From: a virus
DNA: 34,141 nt
Reading direction: 5' to 3' (one strand)
UHGV virus genome: UHGV-0461192
The translations under genes were made by a program, and so were the position numbers. The notes beneath the pieces are model-generated. The model worked only from the letters and a program-made list of their open reading frames with translations, was not told the origin of the DNA and ran no database searches. Positions 6,368-20,115 of this stretch are shown here, in pieces; positions within the stretch are counted from its first letter, which is position 1, and every line of letters starts with the position of its first letter.

Positions 6368-6796
6368 CTATTTTGTCTGGTTTTTGGCTTCAAGTAGTTC
6401 TTTTAGCAGTAGATCGAAGTGCTCTCTTTTTTCTTTTAGCTCATTGATTAATTTATTTTTTTCGCTCTCAGGCAGTCCTCTGAATAGTTGCAGTAGAGCC
6501 TGTTCTTGCGGGGTTAGTTCTTGATTGTAATTACCCGGGTGTAGTGTGGATTCATCCAAATATTCCCCTTCATTCATGAAGAAAAAATGAACAGGGTATC
6601 CGGTCACTTTTGCTAGCTTGTCTAATTTATCTTTTCTTGGAGTTACCCCATTACACCATGCCTGAACTGATTGAGCCGTAACCCCAATATGGCGAGCTAA
6701 CTCAGATTGAGACCAGCCTAAGTCTTTTAGAATCCGTTGTAGTCGGCTAGCAAAAGCCATGTTTTTCGTTTTTGTGTTCATACCGTAAGGATACAA
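6368..6796 (-). CDS. prophage repressor, XRE-family HTH, no S24 peptidase domain
   Basis: 142-aa ORF with HTH segment LGWSQSELARHIGVTAQSVQAWCNG; divergent from a Cro-like gene; C-terminus lacks Ser-Lys autocleavage motifs. Confidence 0.8.
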   Translation of the reverse strand: MYPYGMNTKTKNMAFASRLQRILKDLGWSQSELARHIGVTAQSVQAWCNGVTPRKDKLDKLAKVTGYPVHFFFMNEGEYLDESTLHPGNYNQELTPQEQALLQLFRGLPESEKNKLINELKEKREHFDLLLKELLEAKNQTK

Positions 6797-10753: not shown

Positions 10754-11061
10754 AATACAAACGGTGGGTGCGTGCGGAAGTCGTAATCATCAAACAATGT
10801 GCGGGCAGCATGACAGTTGAACGTATAGGGCAGCTTATTGGCAGAACCGGTGCAGCGGTACGCACAAAAGCGCGCGAGCTGAAAATCTGTATGTATCTGC
10901 GGGGTAATTATCACCAGTCAGTGAAATACCTCCAGGAAGATATCGAGCTGGCAAGGGAATTACATCAGTCGGGTATTAATCGCCAGGATATCGCAGAAAA
11001 ACTCGAAATGCCGATCGGAGCGGTGAATCAGTTTGTTTATTTTGAGCGGAGAATTTCATGA
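10750..11061 (+). CDS. hypothetical protein, possible DNA-binding protein
   Basis: 103-aa ORF overlapping neighbours by 4 nt; two HTH-like segments. Confidence 0.5.
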   Translation: MKYKRWVRAEVVIIKQCAGSMTVERIGQLIGRTGAAVRTKARELKICMYLRGNYHQSVKYLQEDIELARELHQSGINRQDIAEKLEMPIGAVNQFVYFERRIS

Positions 11062-11282
11062 AAGAACTTTTTCTTGCATTTGTGCCCCGGTTTATTAATG
11101 ACCAGATCGCACTGACTGATAATGGTGAACAATATGAAATTGCCTGCAGCATGGTGGATGTGAATCCTGGCGAACGGTATGACGCGATGTGTGACCTGAA
11201 AATATTTACCTGGCTGGGTTGGGCTATTCCGTGTGGAGAACCAACCAATATTCGTCCGTTTGAGAGCAGGGAGGCTGTATGA
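11058..11282 (+). CDS. hypothetical small protein
   Basis: 74-aa ORF with 4-nt overlap to the upstream gene. Confidence 0.45.
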   Translation: MKELFLAFVPRFINDQIALTDNGEQYEIACSMVDVNPGERYDAMCDLKIFTWLGWAIPCGEPTNIRPFESREAV

Positions 11283-11469
11283 GTGAATTGAAAATACGTC
11301 GCAAGGCAATAGCACGCGTTAAAAATCTATTACCAGTGCCTGTCAAATATCGTTTTTGTGGTGGGAATGTACGGATTGGTACGGATGTATGGTGATTGCG
11401 GAGTGACGTAAAACGAATCGTTGTGGGTGTAATATCGTCAATATCATTGGTTTCCCGGAGGGAAAGGAC

Positions 11470-11691
11470 ATGTTTGGCGATAAACTGGAGTTACCACGGA
11501 ACGGGCGGATAGTGCTCTATATTTCAGATTACAAAGTAACCCGGGCTGAGGTGTTGGAACCGGAAAAACATCTGGTCACGTTACCGGACATTATTGAGTT
11601 GTATAAGCGGGTCGGATATGTGGACTTGCATCGCGATGATGTTCCCGTTGAGTGTATGGAATGTGAACACCGGAGGTTTGAAGTTGATTGA
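11470..11691 (+). CDS. hypothetical small protein
   Basis: 73-aa ORF with GGAGGGAAAGG RBS-like sequence upstream. Confidence 0.45.
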   Translation: MFGDKLELPRNGRIVLYISDYKVTRAEVLEPEKHLVTLPDIIELYKRVGYVDLHRDDVPVECMECEHRRFEVD

Positions 11692-11933
11692 ATTGACTTA
11701 GAAAAAGTCCGGGGCTATAGTTTCCGCGCAGCCGCAAAATCGGTTGCCGGGATTGGCGTCCCGGATATCTAAGTGACGCATAGCCGCGTTAGCGGTTTTT
11801 TTATGTGTTAGGCACGGCCACATTCGCATTATGGTGGGCTGTGTGGGGGCTTCTGTGGAAGCGCCGGGTTCACTTAGCCGGTTACGCCAACCCTGCACAG
11901 CTCACCACCAGATGATTGGCGTCGCTGGTGGTG

Positions 11934-12752
11934 ATGAAAAAAACACTAAGTGAGGCCACTGCGATGACAGTCCAAATATCTGCGGAATCCCTTTCTCCGC
12001 TACATCATAACCAACTTCCCGTCATCACTACTGAATTGCTTGCCAGTTTGTATGGCACGGAAGTAAATGGTATCCAGCAAAACTTCAAGCGCAACATCGC
12101 CAGATTTGTCGTAGGAAAGCATTTTTTTAAGCTGGAAGGTAATGAATTACGCGACTTCAAAAACAGACTGACAGATAGTCAGTCAGTTGCTAAACATACC
12201 CGATCCCTCATTCTCTGGACAGAACGCGGCGCAGCTCGCCATGCCAAAATGCTGGAAACAGAACAGGCCTGGGAAGTTTTCGAAAAGCTGGAAGATTGTT
12301 ATTTTAGCCAGCGTCCAGAGAGGCGGAGTACAACTACCGATGACCGTACTCCCTTGCGTGATGCCGTTAATATACTGGTCGGCAAGAAAGGCATGATGTA
12401 TCCCGATGCCTACACCATGATTCATCAACGCTTCGCCGTCTCTCACATAGAACAACTGTCACAGACGCAAATGTTAGAGGCGATTGAATACATCCACTGC
12501 CTGCTACTCGATGAAAATCACCCAACCATTCCAGATTTTTCTTTTATCACCACTATCAAAAATGGAAAAGTGACCGGGATGCGCCATGTTGCCAAAGGCG
12601 AACATCTGATGACCTTTGACGCTTTCAAAGAGATCGCTGAGCGGGCAGGGTATCTGGTGATCCACAGCGACAATCTGCGAAGTATGACACTGGATAAATT
12701 GATGGTAATGGGGAAAAAGTCGGCTATATCCGTTGCTAATTCAGCATTTTGA
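11934..12752 (+). CDS. ORF6N-domain protein, putative antirepressor
   Basis: N-terminal LPVITTELLASLYGTEVNGIQQNFKRNIARFVVGKHFFKLEGNEL resembles the ORF6N antirepressor-type domain; ORF opens with TTG at 11916, ATG at 11934 or 11964 more likely. Confidence 0.55.
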   Translation: MKKTLSEATAMTVQISAESLSPLHHNQLPVITTELLASLYGTEVNGIQQNFKRNIARFVVGKHFFKLEGNELRDFKNRLTDSQSVAKHTRSLILWTERGAARHAKMLETEQAWEVFEKLEDCYFSQRPERRSTTTDDRTPLRDAVNILVGKKGMMYPDAYTMIHQRFAVSHIEQLSQTQMLEAIEYIHCLLLDENHPTIPDFSFITTIKNGKVTGMRHVAKGEHLMTFDAFKEIAERAGYLVIHSDNLRSMTLDKLMVMGKKSAISVANSAF

Positions 12753-12780
12753 CAGGTTGTTTGGGGCGGAAATACTCTAT

Positions 12781-12848
12781 TTGCGCTTAAAAAGGTATTT
12801 GACCACGACCAGCACGAGACCGAATACCTCTGTCAAAGTACCGCCCAT
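12781..12848. repeat. direct repeat copy A (remnant of the 3' end of a homologue of the 16200-16805 gene)
   Basis: 68 bp about 93 percent identical to 16204-16271; on the minus strand encodes MGGTLTEVFGLVLVVVKYLFKRK-stop with an in-frame stop 4 codons upstream. Confidence 0.75.
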
Positions 12849-12926
12849 ATAAAACAGTTACATATGCACTTGATGACTAAGCTGGCACCAGGTTAACACC
12901 TGGCGCCAGCTTGAAGGAGACTTCAG

Positions 12927-13850
12927 TTATTGGTTTCTGAGGAAAGCGATTCTTGAAAGGGTCATTTGCGTCTGGCAGTCGACCATTTTCTTGACTTCAG
13001 CATCTGTTCCCTGCATTGAAACTTTACCGCACATAGCATCCTTAGTTTTGATCCACTGACGCTGAGAAGGCAGCAAATCTTTTTTCTTCGCCGGGGTTAA
13101 CTTGCTCCAGACGGTACTCAAATCAGAGTCGGCATTCGCAAATGCCATTCGGGACTGATCAAGGTTGTCAGCTTTTTGCGGCTGAAGTTGTGCCTGTCTC
13201 TCTATTTGCTTCTCCGCCTCATACTTAGCCTGTTCTTGCGCCCTGAGTTGCACCTGTTGTTCCGCTTCAATTTGACTCTGTTGGGCATCCTTAGCCTGCT
13301 GGATTTTCTGCTGCTCAACGATCGGGGTGATAATGGAAAGCGATGTCAGTAAAGCGGCGCCCACTGATATCGGATTATCAGTAGAGGTTTTTACAAAAAC
13401 GTTTTTCTGATCGTCGGTCGCCTGCACGGTGTAGGTGATACGTTTTGAAAAGGCGTTTGCGTTGTTCTCCAAAAACAGGCTTTCCATTTGCTTATCGAGA
13501 TTACGATTAAAATTCTTTCTGTAAGCATCTGAAAGCTGGACGTACTCGTTCGCAGATAGAGTCATCGTCACGGTCCCTTCACAAGTTTTCATTGTGCTGC
13601 CCGTGTCACTTGATGTTGTGGAGATCTCAGAGATGGCTAGTTTGATCTTGTCCAGTGTGCTTCGTTTGGTCTGATTAGTGACATCAGGGTATTTATCGAC
13701 CTGTTCAGAGAGTCCTTCATAAGCAGATTTTTTTAATAAATCCATGAGAGCTGACTGGGTTATTTCCGAAGAACAACCGATCTCATCTTTTTTGTTATCA
13801 CAGCCTGTAAGGGCAATGGCGAGTAAGAGTACTGAGTATTTTAATCTCAT
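12927..13850 (-). CDS. lipoprotein with C-terminal DUF1311/LprI-like domain
   Basis: signal peptide plus lipobox (LLLAIALTGC); Q-rich coiled region; C-terminal QRQWIKTKDAMCG...DCQTQMTLSRIAFLRN fits the DUF1311 pattern. Confidence 0.6.
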   Translation of the reverse strand: MRLKYSVLLLAIALTGCDNKKDEIGCSSEITQSALMDLLKKSAYEGLSEQVDKYPDVTNQTKRSTLDKIKLAISEISTTSSDTGSTMKTCEGTVTMTLSANEYVQLSDAYRKNFNRNLDKQMESLFLENNANAFSKRITYTVQATDDQKNVFVKTSTDNPISVGAALLTSLSIITPIVEQQKIQQAKDAQQSQIEAEQQVQLRAQEQAKYEAEKQIERQAQLQPQKADNLDQSRMAFANADSDLSTVWSKLTPAKKKDLLPSQRQWIKTKDAMCGKVSMQGTDAEVKKMVDCQTQMTLSRIAFLRNQ

Positions 13851-15038
13851 GAATTCCCTTTAGAGTAAGGATTGGTTTTTAAGACGCGGTCTGTAATCAG
13901 TCCCGAGAGCTACAGTAAACAACGCTGAGCACTGAACGCATCACAGGTAAGGTAAAAGGTGATATCGGCAAAGGCTGTGAAACCTTTAATTCAACAGATG
14001 GGAACGGTATGCGCAGGATCCTGTAACGACGCTCCCAAAACCGGAAACCTGTAAGGCATGTTTTCGCTGCTGAACTTAATATACGAACCTGCACTATCAT
14101 GAACATATTTTATATCGTTATACCCCGAGTGATTGTGCCCGGCAATGGATAGTGTCCTGGAGGAACTATTTCTACTGTAAAAGGTAGATATTTAATTTCA
14201 GTTTTGAATTATTCCCTGCTGTTAATAACAATGGCTGTATATGGCACCGAGTAGGCATTTTTTCGCTTACTGAAGGGCAGCTGTGAGCGAGGAACAGACT
14301 TTCCCTACTTCGTTGAGAGTACACCTAGTACAATCAAGGCTAAATGATAAAAATATACAAAATATCATATTTATGATATATATAATGGCATTAATCTTAT
14401 TCTTGGATTACGTTGAAAGGGTAATATTATATTTGTGTAACATAGTTTAGATAACAATGCCGTTATGGGGGGGGGAAAGACATTTCAACATATTAGCTTT
14501 GTATCTAACGCTCATGTAGATCTCGATTTTGAACTTAAAGAACAATTATTTTTTAGAGAGCAAGGTATTTTTGGGGAACAAAAACATAAAGTAATGGAGA
14601 GAGGAGAATGTATCAAAAAATCATCGATTTAATTTAGATTGTCCGTATAGTTGGGGGTAAGTCGAATCGCTGGGCTACATGGAATATTGTGTCAAGTAAA
14701 AATATATTTCAATCTTGCAATAACCGATTGTTGAAAATAATGTCAAATCTTAATGGTGAATGGGGAGAATATAATAAACATGAGTCGATATTATGCAAAT
14801 GGATTTAAATATTTTATACCCGAAGACATAGGGTTTCGAGAGTTCGATGAGACTACTTTGAATGCTTTCGAATTTGCTGGCTAAAACATATAGGTTATAT
14901 CTTACATCTGTTTGTAATGGAGCGTAGATGCGACAAGCTACACCATAATAATCATATTATGATATATTGTTAAGTTGTTATGGCATTAAATAAAATTATG
15001 TCATTTTGTTAACCAAGCAAGAATCAAAGGACTTTTAG

Positions 15039-15737
15039 ATGGGTACGGCATTAATTTCAAGCTTTATTAGTGGTGCAATAGCTATAATCTCTATTGCTAT
15101 ATCTACTTATAATCAGAATAGAATAAACAAGCTCAATGAATCACTGGATGTAAGGAGAAAACATCAGTACTATATTGAACCGTTAATTCGCTCAGCTTCA
15201 GACTTACAAAGCCGTATTTATAATATATTAGAATTGGGGTTCATTGAAGAGTTTTATCATAATGGGAATAAGCGCCAACAAGATTATGTTATCAACAATA
15301 CTGTTTTTCTTTTTTCCCAGTTTTTTGCATGGACAGAAGCTGCCCGCATAGACATTCAATACCTTAGCCTAGAAAAAAATAAAAAAATGAGGGAGTTTAT
15401 TAGATTACAGAACAATATTAACTCATTAATCCAAACAGACGTCTTTGGTCAGTATTTTATGTTTTTCATAGGAGAGCAGAGAGCTATTGCAGAAAAGATG
15501 CTGATATCAACAGATACTGGATTTGATTGCATAGGTTACGGCAGTTTCACAAAGGAAAATTGCTTTATCAATGAGCCATTTTTTTTAGATTTAAACAATG
15601 AAGTGATAAATATGACAAGAGATATCGGAATTTATAAAGAAAGGCTAATCAGAATACAGCACGCGTTAATCGATTTAATTAATTTTCTTGATCCTGGCAT
15701 GATTCGATTTGACGGAAAAAAATATGGAAAAATATAA
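15039..15737 (+). CDS. hypothetical membrane-anchored protein (orphan, low GC)
   Basis: 232-aa ORF in a strongly AT-rich stretch; N-terminal hydrophobic helix (ALISSFISGAIAIISIAI) followed by a soluble domain; no recognisable family. Confidence 0.5.
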   Translation: MGTALISSFISGAIAIISIAISTYNQNRINKLNESLDVRRKHQYYIEPLIRSASDLQSRIYNILELGFIEEFYHNGNKRQQDYVINNTVFLFSQFFAWTEAARIDIQYLSLEKNKKMREFIRLQNNINSLIQTDVFGQYFMFFIGEQRAIAEKMLISTDTGFDCIGYGSFTKENCFINEPFFLDLNNEVINMTRDIGIYKERLIRIQHALIDLINFLDPGMIRFDGKKYGKI

Positions 15738-15921
15738 CCCAGATGATTCGTATCAAGGTAAGTTGCTATATGTATCAATTTAATTATGGTTGGGTGAAAT
15801 TTATGTTAATAGTAGCGGAGGGTTAGTTAAAATATGCTCTCAGTGATTTTTGGATAGTTCTTTTATTTATCATTGAAAGTAAATATGTATAGCTTCAAGA
15901 TTTACAAGTGAATCTGTTTAT

Positions 15922-15955
15922 TGACAGTCCGCTTATGGCACAGAGCGGACTGTCA
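15922..15955. terminator. strong hairpin between convergent genes (putative bidirectional terminator)
   Basis: perfect 11-bp stem TGACAGTCCGC / GCGGACTGTCA with 12-nt loop, A/T-rich flanks. Confidence 0.45.
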
Positions 15956-16199
15956 TATTAAATTTGGCTCCACGCCATAGATGTGTCAGCTCATATCTTA
16001 TCTAATACACACAATAACTTTCTCATTCTTGGAGAATTATTTTTTTAAGGGTAGGTGTTGACGTTAGAGCAAAAGAATGGTGATTTTTTTGATGTGTATT
16101 ACGTTGGAACTGATGGGAATAACTATCTGTTTTCAACGCACTGCTAATTTATCAAGGCCCTTTGATCAGGGCCTTCGAAAGACTGTTGGACCGAGAGAG

Positions 16200-16805
16200 T
16201 TACTTGCGTTTAAAAAGGTATTTTGTCACGACCAGCACGAGGCCGAATACCTCTGTCAAAGTACCGCCCATGTACAACTGTAGTGTTAAATCCTCAAATT
16301 CCAGCTTACCTGCGCCGTCGGCAATAAATACACCATTCATTATCAGAAGTTGGAAAGCAAGGATAATCAGGAACCATTTCCCGTATCGTTTTTTTAGAGC
16401 GATTTCTGCTTCAAAATCTTTGTTGTTGAGTTGTTTGCGCTCATGCTCGGTATCAAGTGAATTCACCTGTTTCACAGATGTGAACTCGGTCAAGATTTTA
16501 CTCTCAGTACGGGTGACTTGTTGAGAGGGTGTAGCAGTTGGAATTCTTTTGCTAGACGCAGCTACAGCCATTTTGCGAGCTTCGGCAGCTCTTTTTCTGG
16601 CTATTCCGCGAATACGGACAGCCGTTTTTTTGGGGGCGTGCGAAACCTTTGGCTGAGGTGAAGCTTCGTCAGGAGACTGAACCGGAGTTTCATCGTCCTC
16701 CGGCTCAACCTCTTCTGCTAACTGACGGTGTAGGTTGAGGGAATCCTTCAGTCTGCGTGCTACTTCCTGTTTGAAACGGCTGTTAAAATCGTCATCCGAT
16801 GGCAT
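16200..16805 (-). CDS. hypothetical protein with charged N-terminal region and C-terminal transmembrane helices
   Basis: 201-aa ORF directly downstream of (4 aa gap) the ImmA-like gene; C-terminal hydrophobic segments (WFLIILAFQLLIMNGVFIA, VFGLVLVVTKYLF). Confidence 0.55.
   Translation of the reverse strand: MPSDDDFNSRFKQEVARRLKDSLNLHRQLAEEVEPEDDETPVQSPDEASPQPKVSHAPKKTAVRIRGIARKRAAEARKMAVAASSKRIPTATPSQQVTRTESKILTEFTSVKQVNSLDTEHERKQLNNKDFEAEIALKKRYGKWFLIILAFQLLIMNGVFIADGAGKLEFEDLTLQLYMGGTLTEVFGLVLVVTKYLFKRK
16204..16271. repeat. direct repeat copy B (3' end of the 16200-16805 gene)
   Basis: matches 12781-12848 with 5 mismatches in 68 bp. Confidence 0.75.
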
Positions 16806-16814
16806 TTTAAAGCG

Positions 16815-17303
16815 TTACCCCAACCTCAAGTTCTTTAAACGATAAGTCATCGCATCGTCAGATACGCCAAAATAATGCGCCATTATATAACTTGGTTGAC
16901 CGTCAGCGTGCAGTTTTCTGACCTCATCTACCGGCATCAGAAGTTCTGCTGCGAACTTGTTTGCAAAAATTTCATCAGGATGCGTTCCGGCGCTTGCGGT
17001 TTCGCCACGTAAATCAACGTACTCATATTCATCGCTATGCGATGCTTGCCGGGCGATGTAATGCCCCAACTCATGCCCACATGAAAAACGTTGACGAACT
17101 TTGTTGTCATCACTGTTTAGAAAGATCGCTGGATCTTGATCTTTTTGTTTAATCAGTGCGCCAGAAACTTTCCCAGGAAGATCGGTAATAAAAACATCTA
17201 ATCCCATGTCGTGAGCAATTTTCGCTGGATCAACAGGGAAACCACGCCCGCACCAGAACGTGTCCAGCACTCGCCGGGCGTGCTCTCTTGGGTTGGTAGC
17301 CAT
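16815..17303 (-). CDS. ImmA/IrrE-family zinc metallopeptidase
   Basis: 162-aa ORF with HEXXH motif (GHELGHY) in a context typical of ImmA/IrrE (DUF955) peptidases; GGAGG RBS upstream. Confidence 0.7.
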   Translation of the reverse strand: MATNPREHARRVLDTFWCGRGFPVDPAKIAHDMGLDVFITDLPGKVSGALIKQKDQDPAIFLNSDDNKVRQRFSCGHELGHYIARQASHSDEYEYVDLRGETASAGTHPDEIFANKFAAELLMPVDEVRKLHADGQPSYIMAHYFGVSDDAMTYRLKNLRLG

Positions 17304-17679
17304 AGCTCCTCCAGTTACTGCATTACGATTATTGGTTGAAATATAGACAGCATGTTCCGTACCACATTCCTGTAAAAGTGCAAATTCTGCACTTCTGGTA
17401 CGATATTAACTGTTAGTAGTAAAGTCTTCCAGATAAATCACTTTAAAATCTTGTGAATTGCTTGCTTTTTACGCTGTATTGTGGATGGTTCAATGTTTCC
17501 AGTAAAAACATACATGATAATCATGAGTTTAGTGTTTTTTTAGGCGTCTATATGTTTCTGGAAAATACAGGTCTAACCTGATCTTATCGTTGAGATTTTT
17601 TGTACTCAGTATGCGTGAACGATTCGACCAGGTGACTGTGTACGTGAAGAAGACCGCCCTTAATATTTTAAATGTGCAA

Positions 17680-17695
17680 CCCCTCAGAAGAGGGG
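17680..17695 (-). terminator. hairpin immediately downstream of the 77-aa gene (putative terminator)
   Basis: CCCCTC-AGAA-GAGGGG stem-loop a few nt after the stop at 17702, followed on the minus strand by a U/A-rich tract. Confidence 0.4.
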
Positions 17696-17701
17696 CTACT
17701 C

Positions 17702-17935
17702 TCACTTCTGCAGTATCTCGCCAATACCTGCCAGATTCTCGTCCATCTTGTCACCGTTTTCGATAAGGATGGAGTTGAGCCGATTCAGTTGCATAGCAAT
17801 TTCAAGTTTGATTAAGGTATCCACCGATACACCAGTTTCTTTTGCTAACTTAGTAAGAGCCGCAGCTCGATTGGCTAAATTAAAATCATCGAACTCATAA
17901 CGACTTCTGCACGGCTGGTTGCCTAACGTACCCAT
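17702..17935 (-). CDS. hypothetical small protein, possible HTH
   Basis: 77-aa ORF; segment LAKETGVSVDTLIKLE is HTH-like; followed by a hairpin. Confidence 0.45.
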   Translation of the reverse strand: MGTLGNQPCRSRYEFDDFNLANRAAALTKLAKETGVSVDTLIKLEIAMQLNRLNSILIENGDKMDENLAGIGEILQK

Positions 17936-18179
17936 AGTGATTCCTCATGATATAAAGACCCAACAATATAAATTACCAGGCACATCATAAGATAGGGTTC
18001 CAGCCCATATTTTCAAATATTTGCAAGTATCACCGTTCAGTCTAAAAAGTTGGATGATGATTTAACGAGCCATAACAAAACCCTGCCTCGGAGGTTTTTT
18101 CTTTTTTATAGAACTCAGCGGCGTGAAAACGAATAATAAATTGTGCAAATAGTGCAGTTTTTATTATTCGAGGTAATTA

Positions 18180-18820
18180 TGAAAACCTTCTATGAGGACT
18201 GGCCTGAAACTTTCGTTAGCCGGTTAGATATGTTACGGGCGTTGGATGATCGCGGTTCGACCCGGAGGCTCTATCTTGAACGGACCGGGGCAATATTTGA
18301 CGCTCTGGCAGAAGAGATACGTACAGTCGTTGCCGGGCATCCTGAAATCGACGTGAGTGAACTTGATATCGGGCCGCTGTATCGCTATTACAAACGTGGA
18401 GAAAAGGGGAATCCGCTGGCTGACTTACTTATTGAGTTGGCTCCACCAACTTGTGAACGGGTTCGTATATCTCCTGAAGTGTACATAATCCCGTATCTGT
18501 TTTTTGCACTGTTGATAGCGCAAGGCGCTGACAACGATGCCCGCGATTTTTTCAATATGATGATGCGACCGTTAATCATCGCCTACCGTTTCAAACAACT
18601 GGCGCGATACCTGGGAACAAAGGGCGGAGGACGACCACAGCACAGATTAAAAAGCGAAGCCATTGAACTGGCTGATCGTTTTTTTACTGAAAACCCGACA
18701 GCGCCATTATCGCGTGGCGTGCAATACATATCCGGTATTTTTGTGGCGAAATACTCTGACCCACCTGCAGCGTCGACGATTAGAAAATGGTTAATTCCAA
18801 TTTACAGGAGTGATAAATAA
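18180..18820 (+). CDS. hypothetical protein
   Basis: 213 aa from ATG 18180 (GAGG RBS); ORF opens at 18143; no recognisable motif. Confidence 0.5.
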
Positions 18821-18933
18821 TGACCATAAACGGTTTAATCCCCTATAAAACCGTTTAATAAAATTCACGACGTGAATATAATTGTTCATTATTCCCTCAT
18901 TGTATTTGGCGTTATGACAAATGCCATAAAATA

Positions 18934-18949
18934 CTGTATAAATATACAG
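18934..18949. promoter_or_regulatory. LexA box (SOS operator)
   Basis: CTGTATAAATATACAG matches the CTGT-N8-ACAG consensus with AT-rich core; 22 nt upstream of a small ORF. Confidence 0.7.
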
Positions 18950-18971
18950 GTTGTGGCATTGGGGGGAAGAC

Positions 18972-19151
18972 ATGAATATTCAAGAATCTATAGGCGAACT
19001 ACCGGAAACATGCCGGGCTGTTATCAAGCGTAAGGACGGACACATCGTTGGTGTGCGTGTTCTGACCGATGATGAGCGGATTGCCAGCCTGATGGCGTTT
19101 CTCGAGTTGGCAGAAATAGCTGGATATACTATTACACCCCCTGACGCGTAA
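18972..19151 (+). CDS. small LexA-regulated protein, candidate antirepressor
   Basis: 59-aa ORF (MNIQESIGELPETCRAVIKRKDGHIVGV...) immediately downstream of the LexA box; function inferred from context. Confidence 0.45.
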   Translation: MNIQESIGELPETCRAVIKRKDGHIVGVRVLTDDERIASLMAFLELAEIAGYTITPPDA

Positions 19152-19228
19152 AACACGGTATAATATCGGTGCTGGATTGAACACCCGGCACCATTTTCTG
19201 AACACTGCCGCGCCACCTGGAGTTAACC

Positions 19229-19825
19229 ATGGCGCAGCATTCATTTATCAGGGTATCCGGCGGTTCGCTAATACCCGCGACACCAGACACGCAACGCTGG
19301 TTGACTGAACGAGTCAAACCAGGTGCTGTTGTGTATGCAGATTTCAAACAGGCGCGTAATCCCGCGTTTCATCGTAAATTTTTCTCACTTCTCAACCTGG
19401 GCTTTGATTACTGGCATCCGTCCGGAGGGGCTATTTCTCCTGCGGAGCGCGAACTGGTTCACGGCTACGTTAAGTTACTGGCGTATTACGGTGGACACGG
19501 TGATGTCATGGCAGAGCTGGCTGATCAGTATCTTCTCGATGAGTCGGAAAAGCGCGCGGGGAGTATCAGTGCGGTGAAGTCGTTCGAGGCGTTTCGCGCA
19601 TGGGCGATTATGGAAGCTGGGTTTTATGACGTTCATCAGATGCCAGACGGCAGTTTGATGCGCGTACCTCGTTCAATCTCGTTTGCAGCGATGGACGATC
19701 TTGAGTTCGGTCAACTGTATTCAGCCGTTTTAGATGTGCTGTGGAATTATATTTTGTTCCGCACATTTGCCTCTCAGGAGGCCGCTGAAAATGCCGCCGC
19801 GCAGCTGCTGGATTACACATCATGA
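19229..19825 (+). CDS. conserved lambdoid nin-region protein (possibly YbcN/DUF1367-like)
   Basis: 198-aa ORF, 4-nt overlap with the following YbcO-like gene; family name uncertain. Confidence 0.5.
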   Translation: MAQHSFIRVSGGSLIPATPDTQRWLTERVKPGAVVYADFKQARNPAFHRKFFSLLNLGFDYWHPSGGAISPAERELVHGYVKLLAYYGGHGDVMAELADQYLLDESEKRAGSISAVKSFEAFRAWAIMEAGFYDVHQMPDGSLMRVPRSISFAAMDDLEFGQLYSAVLDVLWNYILFRTFASQEAAENAAAQLLDYTS

Positions 19826-20115
19826 AAAAAATCGACCTGAGAAAAGCTGCACGCAGTCGCGCTTGTACTGTGCGTATCCCCGGTGTGTGCAATCACAATC
19901 CTGAAACCAGCGTACTGGCTCATTATCGTCTCGCCGGAACGTGCGGCACAGCCATCAAACCTCACGATATGCAGGGCGCTATCGCCTGCAGTGCGTGTCA
20001 CGATGCCATCGACGGACGTACAAAAACGGATTACGAGCACGACTCATTGTTGTTGATGCACGCTGAGGGAGTTTTCAGAACACTGGCTATCTGGCGCGAT
20101 GAGGAGTTTATCTGA
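19822..20115 (+). CDS. YbcO-like putative nuclease (DUF1364, Cys-rich)
   Basis: 97-aa ORF with KAARSRACTVRIPGVCNHNPETSVLAHYRL...IACSACHDAIDGRT, closely resembling the remembered DLP12 YbcO. Confidence 0.7.
   Translation: MKKIDLRKAARSRACTVRIPGVCNHNPETSVLAHYRLAGTCGTAIKPHDMQGAIACSACHDAIDGRTKTDYEHDSLLLMHAEGVFRTLAIWRDEEFI

Follow-up and report, generated by a model that had tools for sequence, protein, structure and literature searches.

The window analysed here, the whole 34,141-nucleotide stretch of the UHGV virus genome UHGV-0461192, is a prophage of Escherichia coli integrated beside tRNA-Leu and pgsA, and strain SK1144 and many other strains match it at 100% identity. On its minus strand, in a block of accessory genes that has the replication genes on one side and the DUF1367/Q antiterminator block on the other, lie two genes that run antiparallel to the neighbouring phage genes (early-right). 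The upstream gene (16815..17303) encodes a stand-alone zinc peptidase of the M78 (ImmA/IrrE) family with 162 amino acids, and the downstream gene (16200..16805) a membrane protein of 201 amino acids, which starts 9 nucleotides past the stop codon of the peptidase on the same strand. An earlier note, made from the letters of this DNA, had taken the pair for a single operon, and the spacing and shared strand agree with this. We regard the pair as probably being a RosmerTA-type toxin-antitoxin (TA)/abortive-infection cassette, carried as an accessory “moron” of the prophage. This reading draws on sequence comparison: both proteins are homologous to the RosmerTA pair of Gordonia phage Kita (RmrA_D25/RmrT_D5), the two genes are strictly adjacent across phyla, the catalytic site is intact and the partner carries a membrane hairpin. 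We therefore refer to an rmrA-like gene for a predicted antitoxin, on the evidence of Pfam, PADLOC and homology to Kita, and to an rmrT-like gene for a predicted membrane-depolarising toxin, on that of its open reading frame (ORF), hydropathy, an AlphaFold2 (AF2) model and homology to Kita.

The peptidase gene has a strong Shine-Dalgarno sequence, GGAGG, 5 nucleotides before its ATG. Its product matches Pfam Peptidase_M78 (PF06114) over the whole domain (E 7.7e-18; peptidase residues 32–157), which bears out the short HEXXH peptidase of the ImmA/IrrE type described previously, and the Pfam scan of the 162 residues finds no helix-turn-helix (HTH) match. The active site, HELGH (H77, E78, H81) with a downstream E111, is intact and invariant in an alignment with 11 relatives; the loss of catalytic residues that the earlier note had allowed for is thus not seen. 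PADLOC matches the peptidase with capP (2.4e-25, the best match) and with RmrA (5.8e-12). The closest solved structures are CapP (7t5t, E 4.4e-11) and IrrE (3dte, E 2.3e-6), and these matches are limited to residues ~56–182 of chains that are 291–301 amino acids long (56–176 in the 291 amino acids of CapP). As the match ends at about residue 182 of these chains and the window peptidase has 162 residues, the latter lacks the additional C-terminal domain that CapP and IrrE have. The candidate identity with CapP itself was rejected on the same ground of size, as CapP is a two-domain protein (M78 plus C-terminal domain) of ~290 amino acids. Among 50,697 phage records, the nearest relatives of the peptidase are Kita-type proteases. 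In Mycobacterium phage Che9c and in a Helicobacter prophage, the gene of a close relative (45% and 40% identity, respectively) precedes one for a small protein with membrane helices at its C-terminus and no homology to the D5 toxin; the Che9c pair adjoins a HicAB system. Since these partners are not D5 proteins, the peptidase subfamily swaps between different membrane toxins.

The membrane protein conforms to its earlier description as a protein with a highly charged N-terminal region and C-terminal transmembrane (TM) helices. Charged residues make up 36% of positions 1–143, and the hydropathy profile has one clear hydrophobic segment (144–162) and a second, amphipathic helix (175–197). The AF2 model contains helices at 4–32, 119–164 and 173–199, with low confidence at 34–68 and 85–117. 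The domain plan is therefore an N-terminal helix (4–32), a disordered charged linker (~34–117), a juxtamembrane helix continuous with TM1 (119–164) and a TM2 (173–199) in which an invariant E185 lies. Hydropathy and charge predict a hairpin topology with both ends in the cytoplasm (N-in/C-in), the topology signals being KKRYGK before TM1, an acidic loop and KRK at the C-terminus. In an alignment of 22 enterobacterial homologues, ranging from 130 to 239 amino acids, the N-terminal helix is conserved and the linker varies freely in both length and sequence; the C-terminal ~90 residues are highly conserved and close in a nearly invariant second membrane helix.

Neither Pfam, NCBIfam nor PADLOC scans assign the 201-residue protein to a family, and the toxin family profile found no match among PDB sequences. 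Scans of 37 members of the toxin family against Pfam and PADLOC likewise matched no family, with weak, sub-threshold Phage_holin_2 matches in two of the 37 (best E 6.5e-4). A phage holin was considered and rejected: the window protein has no Phage_holin_2 match, and its gene is ~4 kb away from the holin/endolysin genes and on the other strand. A SLATT-type effector with two TM helices was ruled out by the lack of a Pfam SLATT match.

The association between the two genes is conserved over long evolutionary distances. A pattern scan of one genome per species gave ten loci encoding a relative of the membrane protein, in Escherichia, Leclercia, Buttiauxella, Thalassotalea, Gallibacterium, Microbulbifer, Desulfuromonas, a Rhodococcus metagenome-assembled genome (MAG) and two unclassified MAGs (an uncultured proteobacterium and a “bacterium” isolate). 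At all ten, the gene is directly preceded on its strand by one for an M78 peptidase of ~160–190 amino acids, which overlaps it or lies no more than 11 nucleotides away, and the same arrangement, with the M78 peptidase directly upstream of the toxin homologue, is found in Gordonia phages Kita and ThankyouJordi. Further variants, in E. coli and Salmonella, occupy the outer edges of prophage or island integrases, and here too a 162-amino-acid M78 gene directly precedes the toxin gene. The extent of the toxin family emerged from an exhaustive profile search, which was needed here; a word-indexed search with a diverse alignment added few members. The exhaustive search returned 3,275 clusters (50% identity) at E <= 0.001 and 654 at E <= 1e-10, all of them small proteins with the same C-terminal hairpin and some as short as 100–120 amino acids. 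When distant members were looked up in metagenomes, the upstream peptidase was present for six of seven, the seventh contig being too short; among these six, four loci (three members) have the full peptidase and two its C-terminal fragment, at the end of the contig. The membrane partner had been called unusual, a description that does not suit so widespread a two-gene cassette.

The surroundings of the pair, on the other hand, vary from locus to locus: it may be flanked by pheT-ihfA and a MerR gene, follow sucCD, adjoin the gene of a large restriction-type enzyme or lie within a prophage. Mobile or defence-like neighbours of the family loci include restriction-enzyme genes, HicAB, VbhA and phage moron sites. 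Of 5,426 complete E. coli genomes, 431 (~8%) contain the peptidase gene at >=80% coverage and 431 the toxin gene, so that the co-occurrence is exact. The complete genomes with both genes include EC958 and JJ1886.

The route to an experimentally characterized relative led through Actinobacteria. A tblastn search with the E. coli toxin against phage records gave no matches; one with the Rhodococcus homologue identified a gene in Gordonia phage Kita and in related phages. The Kita match is gp33, which directly follows gp32, annotated as “metallo-protease”. Full-length alignment of the window peptidase with gp32 gives 43% identity (E 1e-41), and the membrane protein is 32% identical to gp33 by BLASTP (E 1e-6), over both membrane helices. 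With a hidden Markov model of the proteobacterial members only, the Rhodococcus protein scores 44.6 bits and Kita gp33 23.3 bits, and hhalign of the proteobacterial against the actinobacterial toxin sub-families gives a probability of 96.4% (E 1.4e-9). E185, which is membrane-embedded, G188, T194, L197 and F198 (the last two being the LF of a C-terminal YLF motif) are invariant in an alignment that includes gp33; when more actinobacterial members are added, E185, G188, L197 and F198 stay invariant and T194 does not. Synteny and the invariant polar residues together argue against a chance match between the toxin and its Kita counterpart. The remote-homology search that had been proposed for the pair has thus led to homologues of both proteins.

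Both Kita proteins have been studied: in the supplementary tables of Ernits et al. 2023 (PMC10440598), gp32 (YP_009301393.1) is RmrA_D25 and gp33 (YP_009301394.1) is RmrT_D5. The Kita toxin is toxic alone, halting translation, transcription and replication within minutes, and causes rapid depolarisation and permeabilisation/pore formation in the E. coli membrane; the peptidase lowers this toxicity, neutralising it partly (PMC10440598). In E. coli the Kita pair confers narrow defence, against a few BASEL myoviruses (two phages), which are given as Bas54 and Bas59 in the main text and as Bas54 and Bas60 in the legend of Fig. 5 (PMC10440598). The toxin was described as without detectable similarity to any other family (PMC10440598), and the E. 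coli accessions do not appear in the supplementary tables of that study, as far as these were available (one in part). Since the window pair is homologous to the tested Kita RosmerTA, it represents a known kind of module rather than a new regulatory switch. The earlier note had itself named a widespread conserved module of known function in this phage family as evidence against its interpretation; such a module is what we find, with the tested example coming from a different phage family (RmrA_D25/RmrT_D5, PMC10440598).

On the model of the Kita pair, a mechanism can be proposed. The RmrA-like peptidase (D25 family), translated first from its strong ribosome-binding site, would hold the toxin harmless in the lysogen, either by binding it or by cleaving its disordered N-terminal part. 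The RmrT-like protein (NetFlax D5 family) would insert into the inner membrane via its C-terminal hairpin, and, if unchecked, would oligomerise and depolarise or permeabilise the membrane, probably by forming a pore. On infection, certain phages would relieve this control, and the membrane potential would be lost before the phage cycle is completed (abortive infection). Toxicity, neutralisation and defence in E. coli are inferred here by analogy. That the membrane protein is, as had been suspected, a regulated effector, with the peptidase holding it in check, is most likely. A more specific proposal, which we consider rather unlikely, is that the pair belongs to an HTH-less subtype in which the peptidase neutralises or gates a pore-forming toxin by proteolysis of its cytoplasmic N-terminal region, with the linker possibly acting as a decoy or sensor for a phage factor. 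Proteolytic control of this sort is conceivable because the catalytic site is invariant and the linker of the enterobacterial toxins is disordered and hypervariable.

Several points weigh against a RosmerTA assignment. The E. coli pair is known here from sequence comparison, and the homology between its toxin and that of Kita covers ~70 residues of membrane helices, in which composition can inflate scores. The E. coli toxin has ~100 extra N-terminal residues that are not in Kita. RmrA proteins of the original RosmerTA systems frequently, if not universally, bear an N-terminal HTH (PMC10440598), which the window peptidase lacks, and the PADLOC RmrA models, with 357–400 positions, match it via their peptidase half only, with capP scoring higher. 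Additionally, neutralisation of the Kita toxin is partial and no confident model of the Kita antitoxin-toxin complex was obtained (PMC10440598), and thus the role of the peptidase as an “antitoxin” is not fully settled.

This last point bears on an alternative in which the peptidase is an activator rather than an antitoxin, stripping the disordered N-terminal region from the toxin upon infection and so freeing an active pore, by the same logic as bacterial gasdermins and their proteases. The partial neutralisation by the Kita antitoxin would agree with such a role, as would the N-terminal helix and hypervariable disordered linker, which resemble a removable module. Moreover, the catalytic residues are invariant in every peptidase examined, so that catalysis, and not mere binding, seems to be under selection. 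However, the Kita toxin is toxic by itself, and its peptidase reduces this toxicity instead of being required for it. The short members of the family, with 100–120 amino acids, have almost no N-terminal region that could be removed, and the order of peptidase then toxin, with overlapping genes, is that of a typical antitoxin-toxin operon. We therefore consider protease activation improbable, and return to the RosmerTA reading in discussing the natural variants of the pair.

Disrupted alleles of the cassette exist in E. coli. In strain AR_451, an IS1 element has inserted inside the 3' end of the toxin gene, truncating TM2 and leaving the peptidase intact, and frameshifted toxin alleles are found at A-runs; none of the disrupted alleles found combines a lost peptidase with an intact toxin. 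Anecdotally, these variants fit toxin-antitoxin logic. An IS1 element also lies downstream of the toxin gene in E. coli S9, and likewise in R10 and R13. A repeat search of the window itself identified a relic of a second toxin gene at 12778..12858 (minus strand), just downstream of an LprI-family gene: 81 nucleotides of a toxin gene 3' end, encoding YMGGTLTEVFGLVLVVVKYLFKRK followed by a stop, which form a direct repeat of 16201–16281 with 89% identity. Strain E24377A has a related prophage in which this relic, flanked by the ORF6N and LprI genes, is present but the full cassette is not, which suggests turnover of the cassette at this accessory-gene site. Relics and disrupted toxin alleles could also be read as signs that the pair plays no part in phage defence in E. 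coli, and is either a decaying remnant or a module that serves plain addiction or stabilisation. Many TA pairs have no defence phenotype, and the Kita system itself defended against just two BASEL phages. Against this, about 410 genomes carry both genes intact and with >99% conservation, and the toxin family is linked to defence and mobile contexts, and we judge a cassette devoid of any defence role to be distinctly improbable.

Short matches of the spacer type account for about ten genomes per gene, which have no other match to it. A type I-E CRISPR spacer of another E. coli strain, 23CRST031, in an array between queE and ygcE, matches the toxin gene at 32 of 32 positions (16218–16249, plus strand) with AAG directly 5', and a different one, of E. 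coli strain GCM39-10-2-9-3-1, matches the peptidase gene, again at 32 of 32 positions (17209–17240, plus strand), with ATG 5'. AAG and ATG are both functional protospacer adjacent motifs of type I-E systems.

The DNA upstream of the peptidase gene is non-coding, as the earlier note had stated: the 398 nucleotides from 17304 to 17701 contain no credible ORF. The description of this stretch as palindrome-rich is not upheld, since there is no inverted repeat of >=12 nucleotides in 17304–17700, and a 6-nucleotide seed gives three imperfect ones that are 71–82% complementary. A part of it, 17304..17570 (minus strand), moves with the operon: the window and the E. whittamii locus are nearly identical up to ~17570 and divergent beyond. 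The promoter and leader of the operon presumably lie within 17304–17570. A scan for sigma-70 consensus promoters in 17304–17560 gave no match, the regional counts being those expected from shuffled sequence, and an Rfam scan of 11000–20000 found no RNA family within 16000–18200. A terminator scan called a terminator-like hairpin at 17580–17568 (minus strand), just upstream of the shared region. At the other end of the operon, 25 nucleotides past the toxin stop codon, a GC-rich hairpin of 8 bp can be read from the sequence at 16154..16175 (minus strand; AAGGCCCT-GATCAA-AGGGCCTT). It has no T-run and was not called in the terminator scan, but possibly marks the end of the operon.

The next ORF upstream, at 17702–17935 on the minus strand, encodes an orphan protein of 77 amino acids (phrog_5550). 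The earlier note was right as to its existence but not in calling it HTH-like and separately terminated. Its sole Pfam match is a MerR match over 14 residues, below threshold (E 0.13), and its AF2 model is a helix-loop-long-helix hairpin of fair confidence (predicted local distance difference test score 81) with no significant match in the PDB (best E 4.8); the proposed homology and structure checks therefore give no support for an HTH. The GC hairpin after its stop codon has no T-run, and the terminator scan calls the hairpin at 17580–17568 instead. Homologues of the 77-amino-acid protein, which share the conserved motif MQLNRLNSILIE.GD..DENLAGIG, are almost confined to E. coli. The ORF is missing from the copy of this prophage region in E. 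whittamii, which shares ~270 bp upstream of the peptidase with the window, and a 53%-identical relative lies in another prophage with no peptidase near. As an HTH partner of the peptidase the 77-amino-acid ORF is thus rejected, being neither conserved with the pair nor predicted to have an HTH fold.

The immunity region offers no closer connection. It lies ~10 kb from the pair and on the opposite strand, and its repressor (6368–6796) has an HTH_3 domain only, without an S24 peptidase domain, in agreement with its earlier classification as uncleavable; the peptidase is also, as had been stated, outside the ImmR-ImmA layout, with no HTH gene conserved beside the pair in more than 20 loci examined. 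The prophage does have a C4-type antisense RNA and antirepressor module at 11715–12752 (plus strand), where Rfam matches to c4-a1b1, isrK and C4 antisense RNA (80.4 and 75.2 bits, which exceed the gathering scores) are directly followed on their 3' side by an ORF6N/antirepressor gene (11916–12752, plus strand). This is an immI-like antirepressor control module of the P1/P7 type, in a prophage with an HTH-only repressor. As the prophage owns this C4/IsrK RNA and ORF6N antirepressor, it has an induction route that needs no M78 peptidase, and a role of the pair in prophage induction, which the earlier note implied, is not indicated. An ImmA/IrrE-type switch, in which the peptidase, on sensing DNA damage or some other signal, would cleave an HTH repressor (the 77-amino-acid protein, the prophage repressor or another), turning on the effector or the prophage, is accordingly very improbable: the peptidase does belong to the Pfam family of ImmA, IrrE and CapP and the prophage repressor does lack a self-cleavage domain, but the pair has no conserved HTH neighbour and no partner in the E. 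coli-specific 77-amino-acid ORF, occurs also at non-prophage chromosomal sites such as pheT-ihfA and sucCD, resides in a prophage with its own antirepressor module, and includes a peptidase without the C-terminal domain of the 291–301-residue CapP and IrrE chains.

Other features of the accessory block lie further along the window. A gene at 15039–15737 (plus strand), inside an island of 32–33% GC, encodes a protein of 232 amino acids with an N-terminal membrane helix and a weak PADLOC match (E 1.8e-5) to RTasTM, a membrane protein associated with DRT (defence-associated reverse transcriptase) systems; it may be another defence-type accessory gene. A strong terminator hairpin (15922–15955) follows it. 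Between the LprI-family gene and the 232-amino-acid gene, ~1.19 kb of low-GC DNA (13851–15038) has no ORF of >=70 amino acids on either strand.

Identification of the pair as a RosmerTA-type cassette would provide a functional label for genes that are annotated merely as “ImmA/IrrE family metallo-endopeptidase” and “hypothetical protein”, and that are present in ~8% of complete E. coli genomes, including the sequence type 131 (ST131) reference strains EC958 and JJ1886. The Kita RosmerTA toxin in turn becomes part of a large family, in Proteobacteria and Actinobacteria, that is almost always accompanied by the same short peptidase. The size and breadth of this family, its lack of a Pfam or PADLOC model and the N-terminal extension of the toxin in Enterobacterales are new findings of this analysis. 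With no such model for the toxin family, the tested PADLOC and Pfam models miss it. The E. coli pair would also be a convenient model, in its native host, for the control of a membrane toxin by an M78 peptidase that has no HTH.

Comparison with other known systems places the pair among several that share one or other of its components. The catalytic M78 domain is common to the window peptidase, CapH/CapP (7t5t) and IrrE/DdrO (3dte). However, in CapH/CapP the HTH gene capH adjoins capP beside an operon of a cyclic-oligonucleotide-based antiphage signalling system (CBASS), and the window pair has neither: its neighbours are a protein with two TM helices, the 77-amino-acid orphan and unknown proteins, and PADLOC gave no CBASS match among six other proteins of the region that were scanned. 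ImmR/ImmA of ICEBs1 and the ImmA-like anti-repressors of phages resemble the window pair in having a small stand-alone M78 peptidase on a mobile element. Nevertheless, ImmA adjoins the gene for its own repressor substrate in the regulatory region, whereas the conserved partner of the window peptidase is a membrane protein and the pair sits among accessory genes. On the toxin side, the likeness is to PanA/PanT, whose PanT_D11 from B. choladocola served as the comparator for RmrT_D5 (PMC10440598). As judged by description, PanT_D11 is, like RmrT, a small depolarising toxin with an unstructured N-terminus and C-terminal membrane helices; its antitoxin, unlike that of RosmerTA, is a Panacea (DUF4065) protein and no peptidase.

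The closest counterparts are the RosmerTA systems themselves, which were defined as a Zn-peptidase-domain antitoxin with a toxin of unknown function (Millman et al. 2022, bioRxiv 10.1101/2022.05.11.491447). The original RosmerTA shares with the window pair its two-gene layout, an antitoxin with an M78 domain and a toxin without a known domain; none of the RmrT models of PADLOC, nor any other PADLOC model, matches the toxin family. The agreement is greatest with the RosmerTA of Kita. Both consist of an M78 peptidase of ~160–180 amino acids without an HTH (178 amino acids in RmrA_D25), followed by a small protein with a C-terminal hairpin of two TM helices, and in both the genes are tightly coupled and carried on a temperate phage. 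The two differ in host phylum, in phage family and in the length of the toxin, which is 119 amino acids in Kita and 201 in E. coli, the longer protein having an extra conserved N-terminal helix and a disordered basic/acidic linker of ~85 residues.

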